Assembly (NCBI GenBank): GCA_037142715.1 | Contig: JBAXAD010000003.1 | Location: 738-64,737 of the forward strand | Direction of reading: 5' to 3' | Length of the DNA: 64,000 nt | Origin: Paludibacter sp. | GTDB taxonomy: Bacteria > Bacteroidota > Bacteroidia > Bacteroidales > Paludibacteraceae | Shown: positions 15,367 through 24,464 of the stretch, one piece after another | How positions within the stretch are numbered: position 1 is the stretch's first letter | How the letters are laid out: each line of letters starts with the position of its first letter | The notes under the pieces: model-generated | Seen by the model: the letters and a program-made list of their open reading frames with translations, nothing else | Databases searched by the model: none | What the model was told of the DNA's origin: nothing | Program-made: the position numbers and the translations under genes

Positions 15367-16347
15367 TTAATTACTTTTATTAATCAGATTTACAACCACT
15401 TTCACTATCATGTTCATGTTTTTTTCTTCGGTGCGGCTTTCGGCAATCATAAGCGTAAGTGCCACCAGCGTGTTGTTTTCAATTAATTTTGTTCCATTTT
15501 CACGGTAAAGAATGTTGTTTTTATCCAGAAACCACAAAAGCAAAAAGGCTGCAATTCGTTTATTACCATCGCTAAATGAGTGATTTTTAGTTACTAAATA
15601 AAGCAACATGGCTCCTTTTTCTTCAATACTCGGATAAAGCTCCTCGCCATCAAAGGTTTGATAAATAGTATTTATAGAACTATCAAACGATTCATCTTTT
15701 TCGTTGCCAAACAAACCACCACTTCCAAACTTATCTTTCAGCAAAGTGATAACAGTCATGGCTTCGTCATAAGTTGCTCTAAATTTGGTTGTTTCACTTG
15801 TGTTCCCAACTTCAAGTTGTTGATAGTCATATCTATCAAGTATATCTAAACCATATGTATAATCGGTAATTACTCGCAACAAACCGGAAGTTTCATCTGC
15901 CGACAATTCATGATTCTGAATAACATTGGATAGCAATTTTATGGTTTTCTTTAAATCTTCCAATTGTTCCAACTTTACTTTTTGGTTTATAGCATAACCC
16001 TTTACAAGATAGTCTTTTAATATACTATTTGCCCAGATGCGGAATTGAGTTCCACGGATAGATTTTACGCGGTAGCCTACTGAAATGATGACATCTAGAT
16101 TATAATATTTTGTTTTATATGTTTTTCCATCTAAAGCAGCTGTCAAGTATTCCTTGACAGCTGAATCTTGTCCTAATTCCCCTTCTTTGAAAATATTGTT
16201 TATGTGTAAGCTTACATTTTGTTTAGATGAATCAAATAGCTCTGCCATTTGTGCCTGTGTCAACCAAACTGTGTCTTCTTCCAATCGAACATCCAATGCT
16301 GTACCGCCGTCAGGTGTGCTGTAAATGATAATTTCTCCTTTGTTCAT
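15367..16347 (-). CDS. RhuM-like N-terminal domain fused to Fic/Doc domain
   Basis: VWLTQAQMAELF...YNLDVIISVGYRVKS (RhuM-like) plus Doc-type motif HSFSDGNKRIA. Confidence 0.85.
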   Translation of the reverse strand: MNKGEIIIYSTPDGGTALDVRLEEDTVWLTQAQMAELFDSSKQNVSLHINNIFKEGELGQDSAVKEYLTAALDGKTYKTKYYNLDVIISVGYRVKSIRGTQFRIWANSILKDYLVKGYAINQKVKLEQLEDLKKTIKLLSNVIQNHELSADETSGLLRVITDYTYGLDILDRYDYQQLEVGNTSETTKFRATYDEAMTVITLLKDKFGSGGLFGNEKDESFDSSINTIYQTFDGEELYPSIEEKGAMLLYLVTKNHSFSDGNKRIAAFLLLWFLDKNNILYRENGTKLIENNTLVALTLMIAESRTEEKNMNMIVKVVVNLINKSN

Positions 16348-16363: not shown

Positions 16364-18469
16364 TTATTTCTTCTTCCAAACGCTCACTTCAGTCAAATGT
16401 TTTTCCGAAATTCTTGACGATTTACGAAGTGTCAATACCAAATCAAAAGGTTTATTTTCCAATGTAAAATACTTATCCAGAATAGTTTGTATTCCTTCGA
16501 ATGAAGTCAACGGCTCACCATCTTGTTTGAAACCACCTGGCCAATGTGCTCGTTTTGTTTCGTTGCCGTCCCAATTATAAGTGGAGGTGATAATTAAAAT
16601 ACCATTTTCATTCAAGCGGTCTTGAATGTTTTTCAAAAACAGTATTGGGCAAATCAATTCTTCCAATAAATTGGGCACAATAATCAAGTCGTAACCGGTG
16701 TAAATAGGTTTCAGGTTATTGGCGTCGGCTTGCATAAAAAGAATATTGTCCTTACCGCTTTCAAGACTCATTTCCGACAAAACCACGTCTCGATAAAAAA
16801 CCAATTCGCCTTCATCTTTTACAATATAGCGAATAAAACCTTTTTCCTGCAACTGAATGGGCATGCGAATAAAACGTGTCGACAAATCGAGCGCCGTCAC
16901 TTTTTCGAAATGTTGCGCAAGTTCAAAGGCGAGTCGTCCTGTTTCTGCATTCAAATCCAGTACGCTGATATTCTTATTATTACCAACACTTTCAATGGCT
17001 ATTTTGGCCAATTGTTTGGAGAAATTTTCTGTATCAGTAAATGCATCACCCCAGTTTGTTTCGCACGAATTTGCTACTTCCCGATCTGTTTCATATTCAT
17101 CGTTGTGTAAAATTAGCGGCATTTCCGATTCCACCATTCTGAATCCAGCATGTTGGTAGAAATGTCTACGGAATGCATAGCGTGCATGACTAGCAGCTTC
17201 ATTTCCAGTGGAAATCCACGAACCTCCTTTGATTATATTGTGTTTTCCGTCAAAAGTTGGTGCAGTAAAATCGTCGTAAAGTGGATGCACTTTGAAGCCA
17301 GGATAGCCGGTAATTGGCGTTTCGGTCCATTGCCAAACGTTGCCTACCACATCGTAAAAATCACCTACTGGGAACGAATCAACTGGGCAAGGTGAAGTAA
17401 AATGCTCCAAATTAATGTTTCCCGGCGCAGTTTCCCATTCTAGAACGTCCGTTACTTTTACGTGCTCTGATAGTCGTTTCCATTCAGCTTCTGTTGGCAG
17501 GCGCAATGTTTTGCCAGTTTGCTTACTTTTCCAGTTGCAAAAGGCTTTTGCTTCCAAATAATTCACTTCTGCAGGCCAGTTCCAGGGCATTTCTATTTCC
17601 TCTGCCACCAAACGTAGGCGATATTTTCTGTTTTTTATTTGCCAAAATAACGGCATTTCGGCTTGTTTAAATGTCTTCCAATTCCAGCCTTCTTCTGTCC
17701 AAAATTCTTGTGCGTGATAGCCACCAACTTCAACGAATTCTAGAAATTCTCCGTTGGAAATAAGGTATTTTGACGTTTTGAAATTTGAAACCTTTTCCGT
17801 GTATTTTCCATATTCATTGTCCCATCCATAAAGCGGATGTTCGAAAGATTTTCCCAAATGCATTTCAGCGCCTGGAACTGGCAATAATTCATTTTTAGGA
17901 GCTGCTCCATTTTCAGTACAGATTTCTCCAAATTTTCCTGCAACCACTTCGTCCAAAGGTAATTGGCGAATAAGAACCGATGAAGTTTCAAGATGAATGC
18001 GTTCATGTTCAATACCCATCATGATAATCCATAGTGGGTCATTCCACGTAATGGGAAGGTTTAATGTGGCATTTTCAATCACCTCCAAAATCACTTTTTT
18101 GGCTTTATTTCTGTAATCACGAACGGCATCAACACTTGGCCAATTGTAATGTTTTTCGTTCAAATCATCCCAGCTCATTTCGTCTACGCCAATAGCAAAA
18201 ATGGACTCAAATTCGGGATTTATTCGTTCCTCCAGCATTTTTGCCAGAAACAATTTATTGATAAAAAACACTGCTGTATGTCCAAAATAGAAAAGCAGCA
18301 CATGGCGCAATGGGTCGCCACGATGGTAGAATACCTCATCGGATTTTAGCTGGGTGTACAGCTTTTCGTCCACTGCCCATGTTTTCTCAAAATAGTTGAT
18401 AATTTCCCGACGTTTATCTTCGGGTTTTCCATTCCGCAAATCAATTGTTTTGGTCAATAAATCTTGCAT
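16364..18469 (-). CDS. ovoA: 5-histidylcysteine sulfoxide synthase with C-terminal methyltransferase-like domain
   Basis: DinB_2-like N-terminus with HERIHLE (Hx3HxE iron-binding; 17987-18007), FGE-sulfatase-like domain with HPLYDDF and FYQHAGFR, then a Rossmann methyltransferase-like C-terminus. Confidence 0.9.
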   Translation of the reverse strand: MQDLLTKTIDLRNGKPEDKRREIINYFEKTWAVDEKLYTQLKSDEVFYHRGDPLRHVLLFYFGHTAVFFINKLFLAKMLEERINPEFESIFAIGVDEMSWDDLNEKHYNWPSVDAVRDYRNKAKKVILEVIENATLNLPITWNDPLWIIMMGIEHERIHLETSSVLIRQLPLDEVVAGKFGEICTENGAAPKNELLPVPGAEMHLGKSFEHPLYGWDNEYGKYTEKVSNFKTSKYLISNGEFLEFVEVGGYHAQEFWTEEGWNWKTFKQAEMPLFWQIKNRKYRLRLVAEEIEMPWNWPAEVNYLEAKAFCNWKSKQTGKTLRLPTEAEWKRLSEHVKVTDVLEWETAPGNINLEHFTSPCPVDSFPVGDFYDVVGNVWQWTETPITGYPGFKVHPLYDDFTAPTFDGKHNIIKGGSWISTGNEAASHARYAFRRHFYQHAGFRMVESEMPLILHNDEYETDREVANSCETNWGDAFTDTENFSKQLAKIAIESVGNNKNISVLDLNAETGRLAFELAQHFEKVTALDLSTRFIRMPIQLQEKGFIRYIVKDEGELVFYRDVVLSEMSLESGKDNILFMQADANNLKPIYTGYDLIIVPNLLEELICPILFLKNIQDRLNENGILIITSTYNWDGNETKRAHWPGGFKQDGEPLTSFEGIQTILDKYFTLENKPFDLVLTLRKSSRISEKHLTEVSVWKKK

Positions 18470-18472
18470 ATT

Positions 18473-19000
18473 CTAAACTAGTTTTTTGTGTAAATATATT
18501 TTTTTCATTACGAAAGTTCCGTTCCCGTCCGCTTTCGTCTTTGTTTGTTCAATATTGGCAATTTGCTCAAAACCAACCTTTTGATATAATGAAATGGCTC
18601 CCACGTTTTCATCCCAAACCCGAATAAAAGCATCTGTGAAAATCGATTTATCAACTGTTTGGAAAAATTCATTCAATAATTTTGTCCCAATTCCCATACC
18701 ACGTGCTGATTCTGTCACCATCATTTCTGCCACGTATACGCATTTATCAAGCGGAAAGTTTTTGTAAATCTCAGGTGGAACGGCCTTGTCAAGTTTTAAT
18801 GGACAGCACAAAATTGCACCCATTACCTGCAAATTCTCAACCGCAAGTAACGCATATCCTTCCGTCAGAATTTCATCAATATATTGATTTAACACTACTG
18901 TATCAATGTATTGTTTTGACAAACCAGTTGAGAAAGCTTCAATGTATAACGCAATTAAGTCTTTACGCTGTTTGGAATTGTTGATTTTGACAATTTGCAT
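18473..19000 (-). CDS. GNAT family N-acetyltransferase, translationally coupled to ovoA
   Basis: Acetyl-CoA motif ARGMGIGTKLL and N..AISLYQKVGF. Stop codon lies 3 nt before the ovoA ATG. Confidence 0.88.
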   Translation of the reverse strand: MQIVKINNSKQRKDLIALYIEAFSTGLSKQYIDTVVLNQYIDEILTEGYALLAVENLQVMGAILCCPLKLDKAVPPEIYKNFPLDKCVYVAEMMVTESARGMGIGTKLLNEFFQTVDKSIFTDAFIRVWDENVGAISLYQKVGFEQIANIEQTKTKADGNGTFVMKKIYLHKKLV

Positions 19001-19166: not shown

Positions 19167-20285
19167 TTAATTAGGTGTCCATTTTAATGAAATGTTCGAA
19201 AAACTTGAAACATTTGCAGGGGCTTGGGTTTGTGCTACAGCTCCTTTTGTAAAATTGAAGTAAGAAAAATTTCCTGTACCATTTCTATCTGTTAATTCCA
19301 TGCAGATTCGGTATGTTCCATCCTCTACTATTGCCCCACTCACATTTGTACCATTCCAAGAACATGTGCGCGTAGCATAAATCGATTGTGTAGCACCTGT
19401 TGTAGCATTGGTTGTGTTTCCGGTTGAATTATAAATCCAGTAGGTCAAATCTGCTTTTCGTGCAGCAGCGAATACAAGCAATGATTTGACAAATACTCCC
19501 GAATTATTTTCTATCCAAAAAGCTAGTACATGGTTGGGTGCATAATTTCCTCCAGCAGTGCTAGTTGCTGTACTTATTGTAAAAGTACCTGCTGTTTTAG
19601 GCGGAACTGCAGTAGTTGTCATCGTAATTTCATTGCCATAAGTTGTTCCAATCAAATTTGTGGCATAAGCCCTTAAATAATAAGTGGTTGTGGCCGTAAG
19701 TCCGGTAACGCTACTGATATAAGTTCCAATTGTTGTTCCTTCAGAAGTTTTGCTATTGGTAATGGTTGGATTTGTTGTAGTACTCCAGCAAACTCCTTTT
19801 GCAGTTAATGTTGAACCTCCATCACTTGTTATATTTCCGCCAGATGTTGCGGTGGTTGCAGCAATATTAGTTGTTGCAGAAGTTGTCAAAACCGGAGCAG
19901 TAGCCTGCAAAGTGGTAAATGTAAACTCCTCACCATAGGAAGTTCCTTCGCTGTTTGTTGCATAAGCACGTACATGATAAGTTGTGCTTGCCTTTAATCC
20001 GGTTAACGAACTTGTAAATATTCCCGAGCCTGATGAATTTGATGTTTTAGAATTGTTAATTGTAGGATTGGCGGCTGTATTCCAGCAAACGCCACGTTCT
20101 GTTATACTTGCACCACCGTCTGAACTTATGTTTCCACCCGAAGTTGCAGTTCCTGAAGCTATTTCAGTAACAGCAGTAGTGGTTAACACAGGAGCTAGTT
20201 TTGTACTTGTGCATGCTGCAAAAACTAAAACAGCAATTACGAATGATACGGTTTTTAGAATTGAAAATCTACTGTTTTTTTTCAT
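19167..20285 (-). CDS. Lipoprotein with two fibronectin-III-like repeats and a C-terminal DUF2271-like domain
   Basis: Lipobox VFAAC, two ~95-aa repeats (APVLTT...YxxRAYATN..GT.YG), then PNHVLAFWIENNSGVFVKSL...WNGT...DGTY. Confidence 0.72.
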   Translation of the reverse strand: MKKNSRFSILKTVSFVIAVLVFAACTSTKLAPVLTTTAVTEIASGTATSGGNISSDGGASITERGVCWNTAANPTINNSKTSNSSGSGIFTSSLTGLKASTTYHVRAYATNSEGTSYGEEFTFTTLQATAPVLTTSATTNIAATTATSGGNITSDGGSTLTAKGVCWSTTTNPTITNSKTSEGTTIGTYISSVTGLTATTTYYLRAYATNLIGTTYGNEITMTTTAVPPKTAGTFTISTATSTAGGNYAPNHVLAFWIENNSGVFVKSLLVFAAARKADLTYWIYNSTGNTTNATTGATQSIYATRTCSWNGTNVSGAIVEDGTYRICMELTDRNGTGNFSYFNFTKGAVAQTQAPANVSSFSNISLKWTPN

Positions 20286-20374
20286 ACTGTTTATTTGTTT
20301 TGTGATTGATTGAAGAATAAAAAACTAGTAAATCTATTTCATCAACTCAGGTTTTAATAACGTGTTTAATAATT

Positions 20375-20917
20375 CTATAATGGCATCCAATTGGAAGTGA
20401 TATTCGTGAAATTAGCTCCATTTGCTGGTGTAATGGTTTGATTAGCTGTACCTTTCACAAAAGTGAACGAGGTGTTTGGGCCAGCTCCCGAATTTTCTGT
20501 CATTTCCATCCAAACTTTGTAGGTACCGTCAGCCACTACTTTTTTATTGATATCGGTTCCATTCCAAGTTGCATAAATGGTGCCATGACCATCGCGGGTA
20601 GCTCCTGTAATGGCGTCTGTTTTATTGGAACTAGAAACCGATCTCCATTTGATCAAATCGCTAACTCGCACAGCAGCTTTTACATAAAGCGTTTTTACAA
20701 ACTTATCTGAATTGTCAGTCACCCAGATGGCTACAACATTTTTTGGAGCATATTGACCACCAGACGAGCTAGTTGTGGCAGAAATCAGAAGGCCTGATGT
20801 AACAGTCGGTACTGCATCTGATGAAGTAACTGCGGCAGTTGTACAACCAAAACCGACAAATGATATTATAGCTAGTAGCAATGAAAAACCAATTAAATTC
20901 TTTCTTTTTTGACTCAT
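20375..20917 (-). CDS. DUF2271-like lipoprotein
   Basis: Lipobox GFGC, then PKNVVAIWVTDNSDKFVKTL...DAITGAT...WNGTD...DGTYKVWME. Paralogous to the C-terminus of the downstream gene. Confidence 0.75.
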   Translation of the reverse strand: MSQKRKNLIGFSLLLAIISFVGFGCTTAAVTSSDAVPTVTSGLLISATTSSSGGQYAPKNVVAIWVTDNSDKFVKTLYVKAAVRVSDLIKWRSVSSSNKTDAITGATRDGHGTIYATWNGTDINKKVVADGTYKVWMEMTENSGAGPNTSFTFVKGTANQTITPANGANFTNITSNWMPL

Positions 20918-23447: not shown

Positions 23448-24464
23448 TTATTTTATTTTCAGACTTTTAATATCTTCTTCAATTTCTTTTAAGCTTAGCT
23501 CTCTTTCAATTTCTTGTTGTACAACTTTGTATTTTTGAAATTCATCATTCGATTTTTCCAAGGCTTTATCGTGGCTTATTTTTCCGGCATGGTCTAGTAA
23601 TTCTCTTCCGTTCAATTGAAGAATTGCATCCAACCTTTGCACCCAATCCGCCATGTACATCGGTGTTTGCTGCTGTGCCATTGTCTCGGCAAAAGCCAAA
23701 TACTGTTCTACCAATAAACCGAGCAACTTAATTTCATCTTCTTTTAGATAGTTTTTAGCAATGCTGATATCTGCTTTCTTTACTGACAATGAGCTTTTTT
23801 TGTCATAGGATTGCATTCCCATTAATGGCAGCGAGGCATCTACTCTTCGATAAACCAATTCGGCAGCAGTTTGTTTACTTATTGCCCATAACAGTTTGTT
23901 TTGTATTACTTTGAAGAATCCAATCGTCCTTTCATCTTTTGCATCATAATCAATGCTAGTTGTATAAATATCTTTAATTTTTTGGTAGAAAAACCGCTCC
24001 GAAATTCTAATTTCACGAATGCGCTCTTGCAATTCGATAAAATAATTCATCGAATTGCCCGATTTAAAACGGTCGTCGTTCAACGTAAAGCCTTTGATAA
24101 TGTATTCTTTAAGCCTTTGCGTAGCCCAAATACGAAATTTTGTGCCTTGCTGTGATTTAACACGATAACCTACCGATATAATTACATCGAGATTGTAAGC
24201 ATTTACTTCGATTTCTTGTGTCTTACCTGCTATAGCACCGTGTTGAGTGGTTGTTCGGAATTTCCGAACAACCACTTTTTCCTCAAGTTCTCCTTCTTCA
24301 AACACATTTTTAATGTGTTCACTAACAGTTGCTTTCGATTTCTGAAATAATTCACAGAGTTGACTTTGACTCAGCCAAACGCTTTCTTCTTCGAGTTTAA
24401 CATCAATTTTAATGCTACCTTCGGGGTTTTGATAAATGAGAATTTCGGAATTTGGTTCGGTCAT
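23448..24464 (-). CDS. rhuM: Virulence RhuM family protein
   Basis: VWLSQSQLCELF, YNLDVIISVGYRVKS, ERIREIRISERFFYQKIKDIY and QNKLLWA motifs. Confidence 0.88.
   Translation of the reverse strand: MTEPNSEILIYQNPEGSIKIDVKLEEESVWLSQSQLCELFQKSKATVSEHIKNVFEEGELEEKVVVRKFRTTTQHGAIAGKTQEIEVNAYNLDVIISVGYRVKSQQGTKFRIWATQRLKEYIIKGFTLNDDRFKSGNSMNYFIELQERIREIRISERFFYQKIKDIYTTSIDYDAKDERTIGFFKVIQNKLLWAISKQTAAELVYRRVDASLPLMGMQSYDKKSSLSVKKADISIAKNYLKEDEIKLLGLLVEQYLAFAETMAQQQTPMYMADWVQRLDAILQLNGRELLDHAGKISHDKALEKSNDEFQKYKVVQQEIERELSLKEIEEDIKSLKIK

Follow-up and report, generated by a model that had tools for sequence, protein, structure and literature searches.

A rebuilt cofactor loop in the methyltransferase domain of a Bacteroidota OvoA subfamily linked to a 5-thiohistidine N-acetyltransferase homologue

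OvoA is a two-domain enzyme in which a 5-histidylcysteine sulfoxide synthase is fused to a C-terminal methyltransferase. The present analysis concerns a variant OvoA, with a rebuilt S-adenosylmethionine (SAM) loop in its methyltransferase domain, that is encoded in a stretch of 64,000 nucleotides from Paludibacter sp. (contig JBAXAD010000003.1, positions 738 to 64,737; hereafter the window). The closest described systems are pairs of ovoA with a gene of the GNAT acetyltransferase family. In Proteiniphilum saccharofermentans, the OvoA-adjacent GNAT was characterized as a 5-thiohistidine N-alpha-acetyltransferase (5THNAT) with the key residues Y116, E119, R153, and W155, namely the catalytic Tyr (Y116) and three acceptor-pocket residues (Glu, Arg, and Trp), and it is for this enzyme only that the acetyl-CoA-dependent N-alpha-acetylation of 5-thiohistidine has been demonstrated (Liao, Lim, Alim and Seebeck, ChemBioChem 2025, PMC12631010). 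5THNAT acetylates 5-thiohistidine and rejects ovothiol A, and the methyltransferase domain of the neighboring OvoA is taken to be active and to compete with acetylation (PMC12631010). Pairs from Paludibacter propionicigenes and CG2_30_38_12 are included in Table S1 of that paper, and pairs whose OvoA has no methyltransferase domain are also among those listed (PMC12631010). A literature search on N-acetyl-5-thiohistidine and 5THNAT found this paper only.

Regarding the methyltransferase domain, structures are available for a canonical fused enzyme, OvoA_Th2 (PDB 8khq), and for the stand-alone methyltransferases OvoM (9bxl-n) and OvsM (9bxh-k). In 8khq, the methyltransferase domains make the core of the dimer and a hairpin docks in the synthase domain of the other monomer, and no methyltransferase domain with bound cofactor is described in that paper (PMC10696552). 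A precedent is AshA, an OvoA-like sulfoxide synthase with a vestigial, quite divergent methyltransferase domain for which no methylation was seen (Abbott et al., JACS 2026, PMC13674229).

The OvoA of the window resembles canonical OvoAs (Erwinia tasmaniensis; OvoA_Th2) in its two-domain architecture, length, iron ligands, catalytic Tyr, and methyltransferase fold. It differs from them by its motif I (D-L-N-A-E-T-G-R), by the changes G526A, R604E, and E683K, by the loss of dimer contacts of the F486/H696 type, and by its linkage to a GNAT gene, which canonical loci do not have. It shares with the described 5THNAT-OvoA pairs the gene order (GNAT directly upstream and co-oriented), the signature residues of the GNAT, and the clade (PMC12631010). 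In the portions of the text and supplement of that paper that were accessible, the rebuilt SAM loop common to these OvoAs is not mentioned, and the motif variant is likewise unmentioned in PMC8433421, PMC10696552, and PMC13674229. As in AshA, an OvoA-derived C-terminal methyltransferase domain would be retained in a pathway with an unmethylated product (PMC13674229). However, AshA is actinobacterial, sulfurizes at C2, and has an ATP-grasp ligase as its partner, whereas the domain in the window is well conserved and under strong purifying selection.

The ovoA Gene and Its SAM Loop

The gene and its two halves are as follows.

16364-18469, minus strand: ovoA, 701 amino acids, 5-histidylcysteine sulfoxide synthase fused to a methyltransferase-fold domain (end-to-end alignment to PDB 8khq, E = 2.9e-241)
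17132-18448, minus strand: sulfoxide synthase half, residues 8-446, DinB and FGE-sulfatase
16370-17095, minus strand: C-terminal class I methyltransferase-fold domain of the variant subfamily, residues 459-700

The reading frame is uninterrupted across the 701 codons, and the protein scores 700.7 bits against TIGR04344 (ovoA_Nterm, cutoff 400) and 288.5 bits against TIGR04345 (ovoA_Cterm, cutoff 170). A preliminary description of this DNA, made from its letters alone, had called the synthase half intact, and the alignment to 8khq bears this out: the EHERIH iron ligands and the catalytic Tyr398 (in HPLYDDF) are in place, Tyr398 being aligned with Y406 of OvoA_Th2 (PMC10696552). Of the traits by which an OvoA is recognized, both the N-terminal DinB/FGE synthase with its iron-binding His and catalytic Tyr and the C-terminal OvoC/OvoM-type class I methyltransferase fold are found (TIGR04345; AlphaFold2 model), while the canonical SAM motif I, D-x-G-C-[A/G/S]-x-G-R, is not.

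The segments of the methyltransferase domain that depart from the canonical pattern, or that bear on cofactor binding, are listed below.

16934-16960, minus strand: SAM motif I variant LDLNAETGR, residues 504-512, with Asn507 for an invariant Gly, Ala508 for an invariant Cys, and Glu509 for a usually small residue
17048-17068, minus strand: N-terminal cap segment SCETNWG, with Asn472 where 82% of canonical domains have His (FHYG)
16880-16900, minus strand: post-I motif VTALDLS, with Gly526 changed to Ala and the ribose-binding acid Asp528 kept (100% in both groups)
16712-16732, minus strand: motif III QADANNL, with Asp582 kept in the window protein (D 55% and N 45% across the variant clade, D 100% in canonical domains)
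16655-16672, minus strand: motif IV and helix, NLLEEL, with Arg604 changed to Glu
16571-16585, minus strand: STYNW, the canonical counterpart being SPYT[WL]
16502-16537, minus strand: beta-hairpin GGFKQDGEPLTS, residues 645-656, conserved more strongly across the variant clade than among canonical OvoAs

The equivalent of this hairpin is the one that docks into the synthase domain of the partner subunit in 8khq (PMC10696552). At the aligned positions, OvoA_Th2 (8khq), OvoM (9bxl), and OvsM (9bxh) read LD[VL]GCA[ITV]GR, NLIDRL, and SPYT[WL], so that the OvoA consensus which the preliminary description had used is correct. The strings that it quoted (HERIHLE, HPLYDDF, SCETNWG, LDLNAETGR, NLLEEL, STYNW) are all present in the translation, although its coordinates for motif I, 16937-16957, span DLNAETG only. 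In comparison with the stand-alone enzymes OvoM and OvsM, to which identity is 30-36%, the window protein differs at each of the motifs LDLGCA[TV]GR, NLIDRL, SPYT, and RETxRKxQH, but the fold is alike (template modeling (TM) score 0.89-0.92). An AlphaFold2 model of the C-terminal domain, built from an alignment of 61 sequences, has a mean predicted local distance difference test value (pLDDT) of 93, and of about 97 over motif I. It matches the methyltransferase domain of 8khq at a TM score of 0.94 and the OvoM-SAM complex 9bxl at 0.92, with a root-mean-square deviation of 1.7 Å. The domain is thus predicted with high confidence to fold as an OvoM-like methyltransferase.

Relatives were grouped by the residue at position 507; by this definition, all 164 sequences of the variant group (N-type) have Asn there and all 74 of the canonical group (G-type) have Gly, a difference not due to chance. 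Conservation was then compared between 44 non-redundant canonical and 55 non-redundant N-type domains, the family core being defined as the 32 positions whose conservation in the canonical set reaches 88% or more. The family motif, from representatives in a library of 1.8 billion proteins, is D-[LIV]-G-C-[A/G/S]-x-G-R, and D-x-G-C-[A/G/S]-x-G-R is common to the three solved enzymes (OvoA_Th2, OvoM, OvsM) and to the 74 canonical relatives. Gly507 and Cys508 are both 100% conserved in the canonical set, while the N-type domains have Asn in 100% at the former and Ala in 82% at the latter. Judged from these alignments, the changes of Gly507 to Asn and of Cys508 to Ala are the hard switches of motif I. 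At residue 509 the N-type clade has D, followed by E, N, K, G, or Q, and canonical domains, for their part, sometimes have K, R, N, or E. Being variable in both groups, it is probably solvent-facing and less diagnostic than the preliminary description supposed. Nor is His472 (82% in the canonical set) a strict requirement, since the three solved enzymes have G, Q, and H there.

The N-type domains keep 24 of the 32 family-core positions, including Tyr459, Asp505, Gly511, Arg512, Phe515, Glu516, Asp528, Glu553, Phe578, Asp594, Trp633, Arg686, and Trp698. Among these, Asp528 is the post-I acid, which binds ribose in class I methyltransferases. Besides positions 507 and 508, Thr638 is lost and Asp582 is weakened, and Gly554 and Trp643 are weakened in part. 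Other positions are conserved in both groups with different residues (V510T, G526A, H472N, and R604E together with E683K). Positions 467, 478, 480, 687, and 690 are relaxed, of which 478, 687, and 690 vary in the N-type, while canonical fused OvoAs, OvoM, and OvsM conserve them. The canonical C-terminal strand R-E-T-x-R-K-x-Q-H is accordingly altered, E683 being mostly K and both K687 and H690 variable. Conversely, some constraints are found in the N-type clade only, namely at E464, E470, A514, R547, D552, L556, M579, K587, and over the hairpin 645-656. F486 and H696, the equivalents in 8khq of relaxed N-type positions, form a dimer contact (PMC10696552).

The canonical pair Arg604/Glu683 is replaced in the variant clade by Glu604 (16658-16660) and Lys683 (16421-16423). 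This is probably a compensatory charge swap in a salt bridge, from which residues 604 and 683 are predicted to touch.

Distribution, Selection, and Gene Linkage of the Variant Loop

The variant loop, with the consensus D-L-N-[A/C]-[D/E]-T-G-R, is fixed in the 164 related sequences. Among the 119 closest homologues by C-terminal domain (63-88% identical there), all have Asn at the first-glycine position except one with Lys (P0113). The commonest loop, in 94 of the 119, is LDLNADTGR, which is also carried by the OvoAs of the P. propionicigenes and CG2_30_38_12 pairs, and eight further protein clusters, as well as an independent Paludibacter metagenome-assembled genome, have exactly the LDLNAETGR of the window. 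A scan of species-representative genomes gave 80 loci, to which that of the window was added and from which the G-type locus L067, whose reading frame is truncated, was excluded; 43 are N-type, the window included, and 37 are G-type. N-type OvoAs are hosted by Paludibacter, Proteiniphilum, Fermentimonas, Draconibacterium, Roseimarinus, and Flavobacteriales, and G-type OvoAs by Geobacterales, Desulfobacterota, bacteria of the Planctomycetes-Verrucomicrobia-Chlamydiae (PVC) group, Ancylomarina, and Labilibaculum. In a maximum-likelihood tree computed from the N-terminal domain alone, so that the columns of the trait itself were excluded, every N-type sequence lies on one side of a single branch (Shimodaira-Hasegawa-like approximate likelihood ratio test, SH-aLRT, 90) and one change is needed, which indicates that the variant loop arose once.

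Pairwise ratios of non-synonymous to synonymous substitution (dN/dS) of the N-type C-terminal domain are 0.04-0.2, with one outlier pair (L015/L026) at 0.31, in comparison with 0.025-0.12 for the same pairs' N-terminal domain and 0.03-0.25 for the C-terminal domains of the G-type. The relaxed selection or decay that would mark a vestigial domain such as that of AshA is therefore not seen, dN/dS being low and 24 of the 32 core positions kept. Relative to the N-domain, the C-domain has diverged by a ratio of 1.57 in the N-type clade and of 1.24 in the G-type, a mild sign of altered constraint. The preliminary description had held that the domain is a degenerate pseudo-methyltransferase, which holds only in part. 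The replacement of Gly507 and Cys508 stands. However, the loop is fixed clade-wide, dN/dS is low, the fold is confident, and most core residues are kept, Asp528, Asp505, Gly511, and Arg512 among them, so that the domain is not degenerate in the sense of a decay. It is a selected, folded module in which the subsite for the methionine side of SAM has been rebuilt, a clade signature of one Bacteroidota subfamily and not a product of decay.

The N-type clade tolerates the outright loss of this domain. An even sample of 401 Bacteroidales genomes contains 12 with OvoA, and in one variant-clade genome (on a 1.5-Mb contig) there is a clean OvoA of 449 amino acids which ends in FRMVES, at the domain boundary. 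Its GNAT gene is kept 3 nucleotides upstream, no remnant of a methyltransferase domain is found downstream at this locus, and no TIGR04345-type domain exists anywhere in the genome. The nearest relatives of this protein are N-type, at 69% identity against 62% for the best G-type. A separate OvoM could have supplied the methylation, but none was found in the window genome, in eight other N-type genomes, or in the genome with the shortened OvoA (ten in all), and this candidate was rejected; in the window genome and the eight other N-type genomes, the fused domain is the sole OvoM-like sequence.

The partner gene in the window lies immediately upstream of ovoA.

18473-19000, minus strand: GNAT acetyltransferase, 175 amino acids, homologue of 5THNAT (Pfam Acetyltransf_1), with its stop codon 3 nucleotides before the ovoA start codon

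It is co-oriented with ovoA, as in the 5THNAT-OvoA pairs. Its residues Y89, E92, R127, and W129 correspond to Y116, E119, R153, and W155 of the characterized 5THNAT and are near-invariant in 34 OvoA-adjacent GNATs. A 5THNAT homologue accompanies 38 of the 43 N-type loci (37 directly upstream, one on a contig end) and none of the 37 G-type loci. The reverse search, starting from the GNAT in 401 Bacteroidota genomes, added one further genome, the OvoA of which is N-type (NCDTGR).

Three further observations concern individual lineages. The sister OvoAs L015 and L026 differ by a dN of 0.06 in the N-domain and of 0.44 in the C-domain, which points to the methyltransferase domain of L026 having been replaced or having gone through a burst of change. 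In Paludibacter sp. APR314 (L042:679-2784), a variant-clade OvoA with LLLNAQTGR has lost Asp505 too, lies on a long branch (0.78), and has a C-terminal alignment that ends early; it may be a truly decaying copy. A second divergent lineage of fused OvoAs, known from fragments among the library representatives (P0182, P0192, P0225), has LD[LI]NCSVGR, with Gly changed to Asn and Cys kept, and would represent a second, independent change of G to N.

Readings of the Altered Domain

The reading to which the highest probability is given, roughly 0.45, is that methylation has been silenced or weakened and that the methyltransferase domain is retained for structure, the product being N-alpha-acetyl-5-thiohistidine. 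The intact N-terminal half would couple His and Cys with O2, a housekeeping beta-lyase would free 5-thiohistidine, the rebuilt domain would fail to methylate it or would do so weakly, and the co-translated GNAT would convert it to N-alpha-acetyl-5-thiohistidine. Selection would maintain the domain for its part as the dimer core and for its hairpin, which supports the synthase domain of the partner subunit. The altered sequence, its fixation in the clade, purifying selection, the intact predicted fold, the GNAT linkage, and the possibility of losing the domain are shown, and the loss of methylation, the structural reason for retention, and the end product are inferred. In this respect, the loss of N-pi methylation put forward in the preliminary description stays live, while free 5-thiohistidine, its proposed end product, is amended, since the translational coupling of the upstream GNAT makes the N-alpha-acetyl derivative the likely one.

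This reading is favored on several grounds. Of the two motif I residues that all active relatives have in common, neither is left, and their replacement coincides with the gain of an enzyme whose substrate methylation would destroy: as 5THNAT takes 5-thiohistidine and not ovothiol A, methylation would divert flux from the GNAT product. The tolerance of the clade to loss of the domain, with no separate OvoM to replace it, points in the same direction, as do the distribution of the GNAT homologue, including the genome recovered by the reverse search, the higher C/N divergence ratio, and the relaxed or switched positions (Asp582 as D/N 55/45, Thr638 lost, and 467, 478, 480, 687, and 690). Finally, OvoA_Th2 provides a structural reason for keeping the domain and AshA a precedent.

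Weighing against silenced or weakened methylation, purifying selection acts on the domain as strongly as it does in canonical OvoAs (dN/dS 0.04-0.2), and the rebuilt loop is among its most conserved segments, with N507, T510, G511, and R512 at 98-100%. The retained core includes the ribose-binding Asp528, and the kept residues Tyr459, Arg512, Glu516, Glu553, Trp633, Arg686, and Trp698 probably line the active site. Position 582 is exclusively D or N, both of which are capable of hydrogen-bonding adenine, and new clade-specific constraints have appeared near the presumed active site (E464, E470, A514, R547, D552, M579, K587). Such a conserved-but-different pattern argues for an altered rather than a lost function. 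Moreover, a large residue in place of the first or second motif I Gly is compatible with activity, as in DNA and m5U methyltransferases (FxGxG) and in COMT (Tyr68). With regard to the GNAT linkage, four genomes with an N-type OvoA, including that of the Bacteroides ihuae isolate and a closed genome of 4.9 Mb, have 5THNAT nowhere in the genome. Because the variant arose once, the association of the N-type loop with the GNAT represents one evolutionary event with a few losses, not a statistical correlation or a proof.

A domain that is active in one way or another is nearly as probable as a silenced one. In the foremost alternative, of fairly low probability when taken by itself, the domain has a non-canonical motif I and continues to methylate 5-thiohistidine at N-pi in a SAM-dependent manner. 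Asn507, where a left-handed backbone conformation is probably required, and Asn472 would re-wire the recognition of the methionine moiety of SAM, and ovothiol A and N-acetyl-5-thiohistidine would both be made, as was assumed by Liao et al. (PMC12631010). The low dN/dS, the kept core with Asp528, Asp505, Gly511, Arg512, and Tyr459, and the limitation of position 582 to D or N agree with continued catalysis, as does the match of the fold to the OvoM-SAM complex. The residues K, R, N, and E that canonical domains can have at 509 imply that a polar residue there need not block SAM, and the variant OvoAs stay unchanged in the four genomes that have no 5THNAT. Against this, Gly507 and Cys508 are invariant in all the canonical domains and solved enzymes examined, and class I methyltransferases usually cease to bind SAM when the first motif I glycine is mutated. 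The coincidence of the change with the acquisition of a competing enzyme, and the fact that the domain can be deleted outright in the N-type clade, also argue against it.

A little more doubtful is the possibility that the domain is active but re-specialized, so that it methylates N-alpha-acetyl-5-thiohistidine to N-acetyl-ovothiol A, binds another adenosyl ligand, or uses SAM as a regulatory signal. In its narrower form of a changed chemistry and not a loss, where the domain would act on N-alpha-acetyl-5-thiohistidine or use a different adenosyl donor and yield an undescribed thiohistidine such as N-acetyl-ovothiol A, the probability is slightly lower again. Conserved-but-different changes at 507, 508, 510, 526, and 604 would fit a new function, as would the constraints peculiar to the clade in the N-terminal cap, at R547, D552, and L556 of the lid hairpin, and at M579 and K587 on the flank of motif III, the altered or relaxed R-E-T-x-R-K-x-Q-H strand, and the coincidence with GNAT linkage. 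However, motif I binds the cofactor and not the acceptor, and is thus an odd site for a change of substrate, while the relaxed residues of the strand are dimer contacts in 8khq (PMC10696552) and R604E with E683K could be a mere swap of a salt bridge. In addition, lineages without the methyltransferase domain and lineages without the GNAT both exist, and the literature search found no report of a metabolite of the N-acetyl-ovothiol A type. A switch to decarboxylated SAM like that of spermidine synthase, with an acidic residue in the Gly loop, was also considered and given a low probability, the acidic residue being one position off and variable (D, E, N, K, G, Q).

Lastly, a local artefact or recent decay in this assembly, be it a sequencing error or an incipient pseudogene, is highly improbable: the assembly is fragmented (432 contigs), but no evidence for such an origin was found, the frame is open over its whole length, LDLNAETGR and LDLNADTGR recur in independent sequences, and clade-wide conservation and low dN/dS led to the rejection of decay. 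The probability that is left beyond the first three readings goes to others.

Neighboring Genes and Implications

Directly downstream of ovoA, and further upstream of the pair, the following genes were noted.

15367-16347, minus strand: protein of 326 amino acids, an N-terminal RhuM fragment with a Fic/DOC domain
19167-20917, minus strand: two DUF2271-like proteins just upstream of the GNAT-ovoA pair
23448-24464, minus strand: full-length RhuM-family gene, 7 kb away

The RhuM-Fic/DOC and RhuM genes may be mobile or toxin-antitoxin-like cargo beside the thiohistidine genes, and no sign was found that the DUF2271-like proteins belong to the pathway. In Bacteroides ihuae, where 5THNAT is absent, a canonical methyltransferase of the UbiE/Methyltransf_25 type (L008:5217-5921, minus strand) is divergent from the variant ovoA at about 80 nucleotides; it is probably the menaquinone methyltransferase, and its placement is probably coincidental. 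OvoA is O2-dependent, yet most of the close homologues (loci L043-L081 and the window) come from Paludibacter, Proteiniphilum, Geobacterales, Desulfobacterota, and Syntrophobacter, all of which are lineages of anaerobes.

The biosynthesis of N-acetyl-5-thiohistidine was described only in 2025, with the neighboring OvoA assumed to methylate (PMC12631010). Every OvoA of the clade of 5THNAT gene pairs carries the rebuilt SAM loop, and the domain is deletable in one lineage. A silent domain would mean that ovothiol A is not made by these Bacteroidota and that their annotation as ovothiol producers in databases is mistaken. An active one would be a natural class I methyltransferase that works without the first glycine of motif I. 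Should the chemistry of the domain have changed instead, widespread and mostly anaerobic Bacteroidota would make an undescribed thiohistidine. Either way, OvoA homologues can be sorted by their likely product with a simple sequence marker, the motif N-[A/C]-x-T-G-R.

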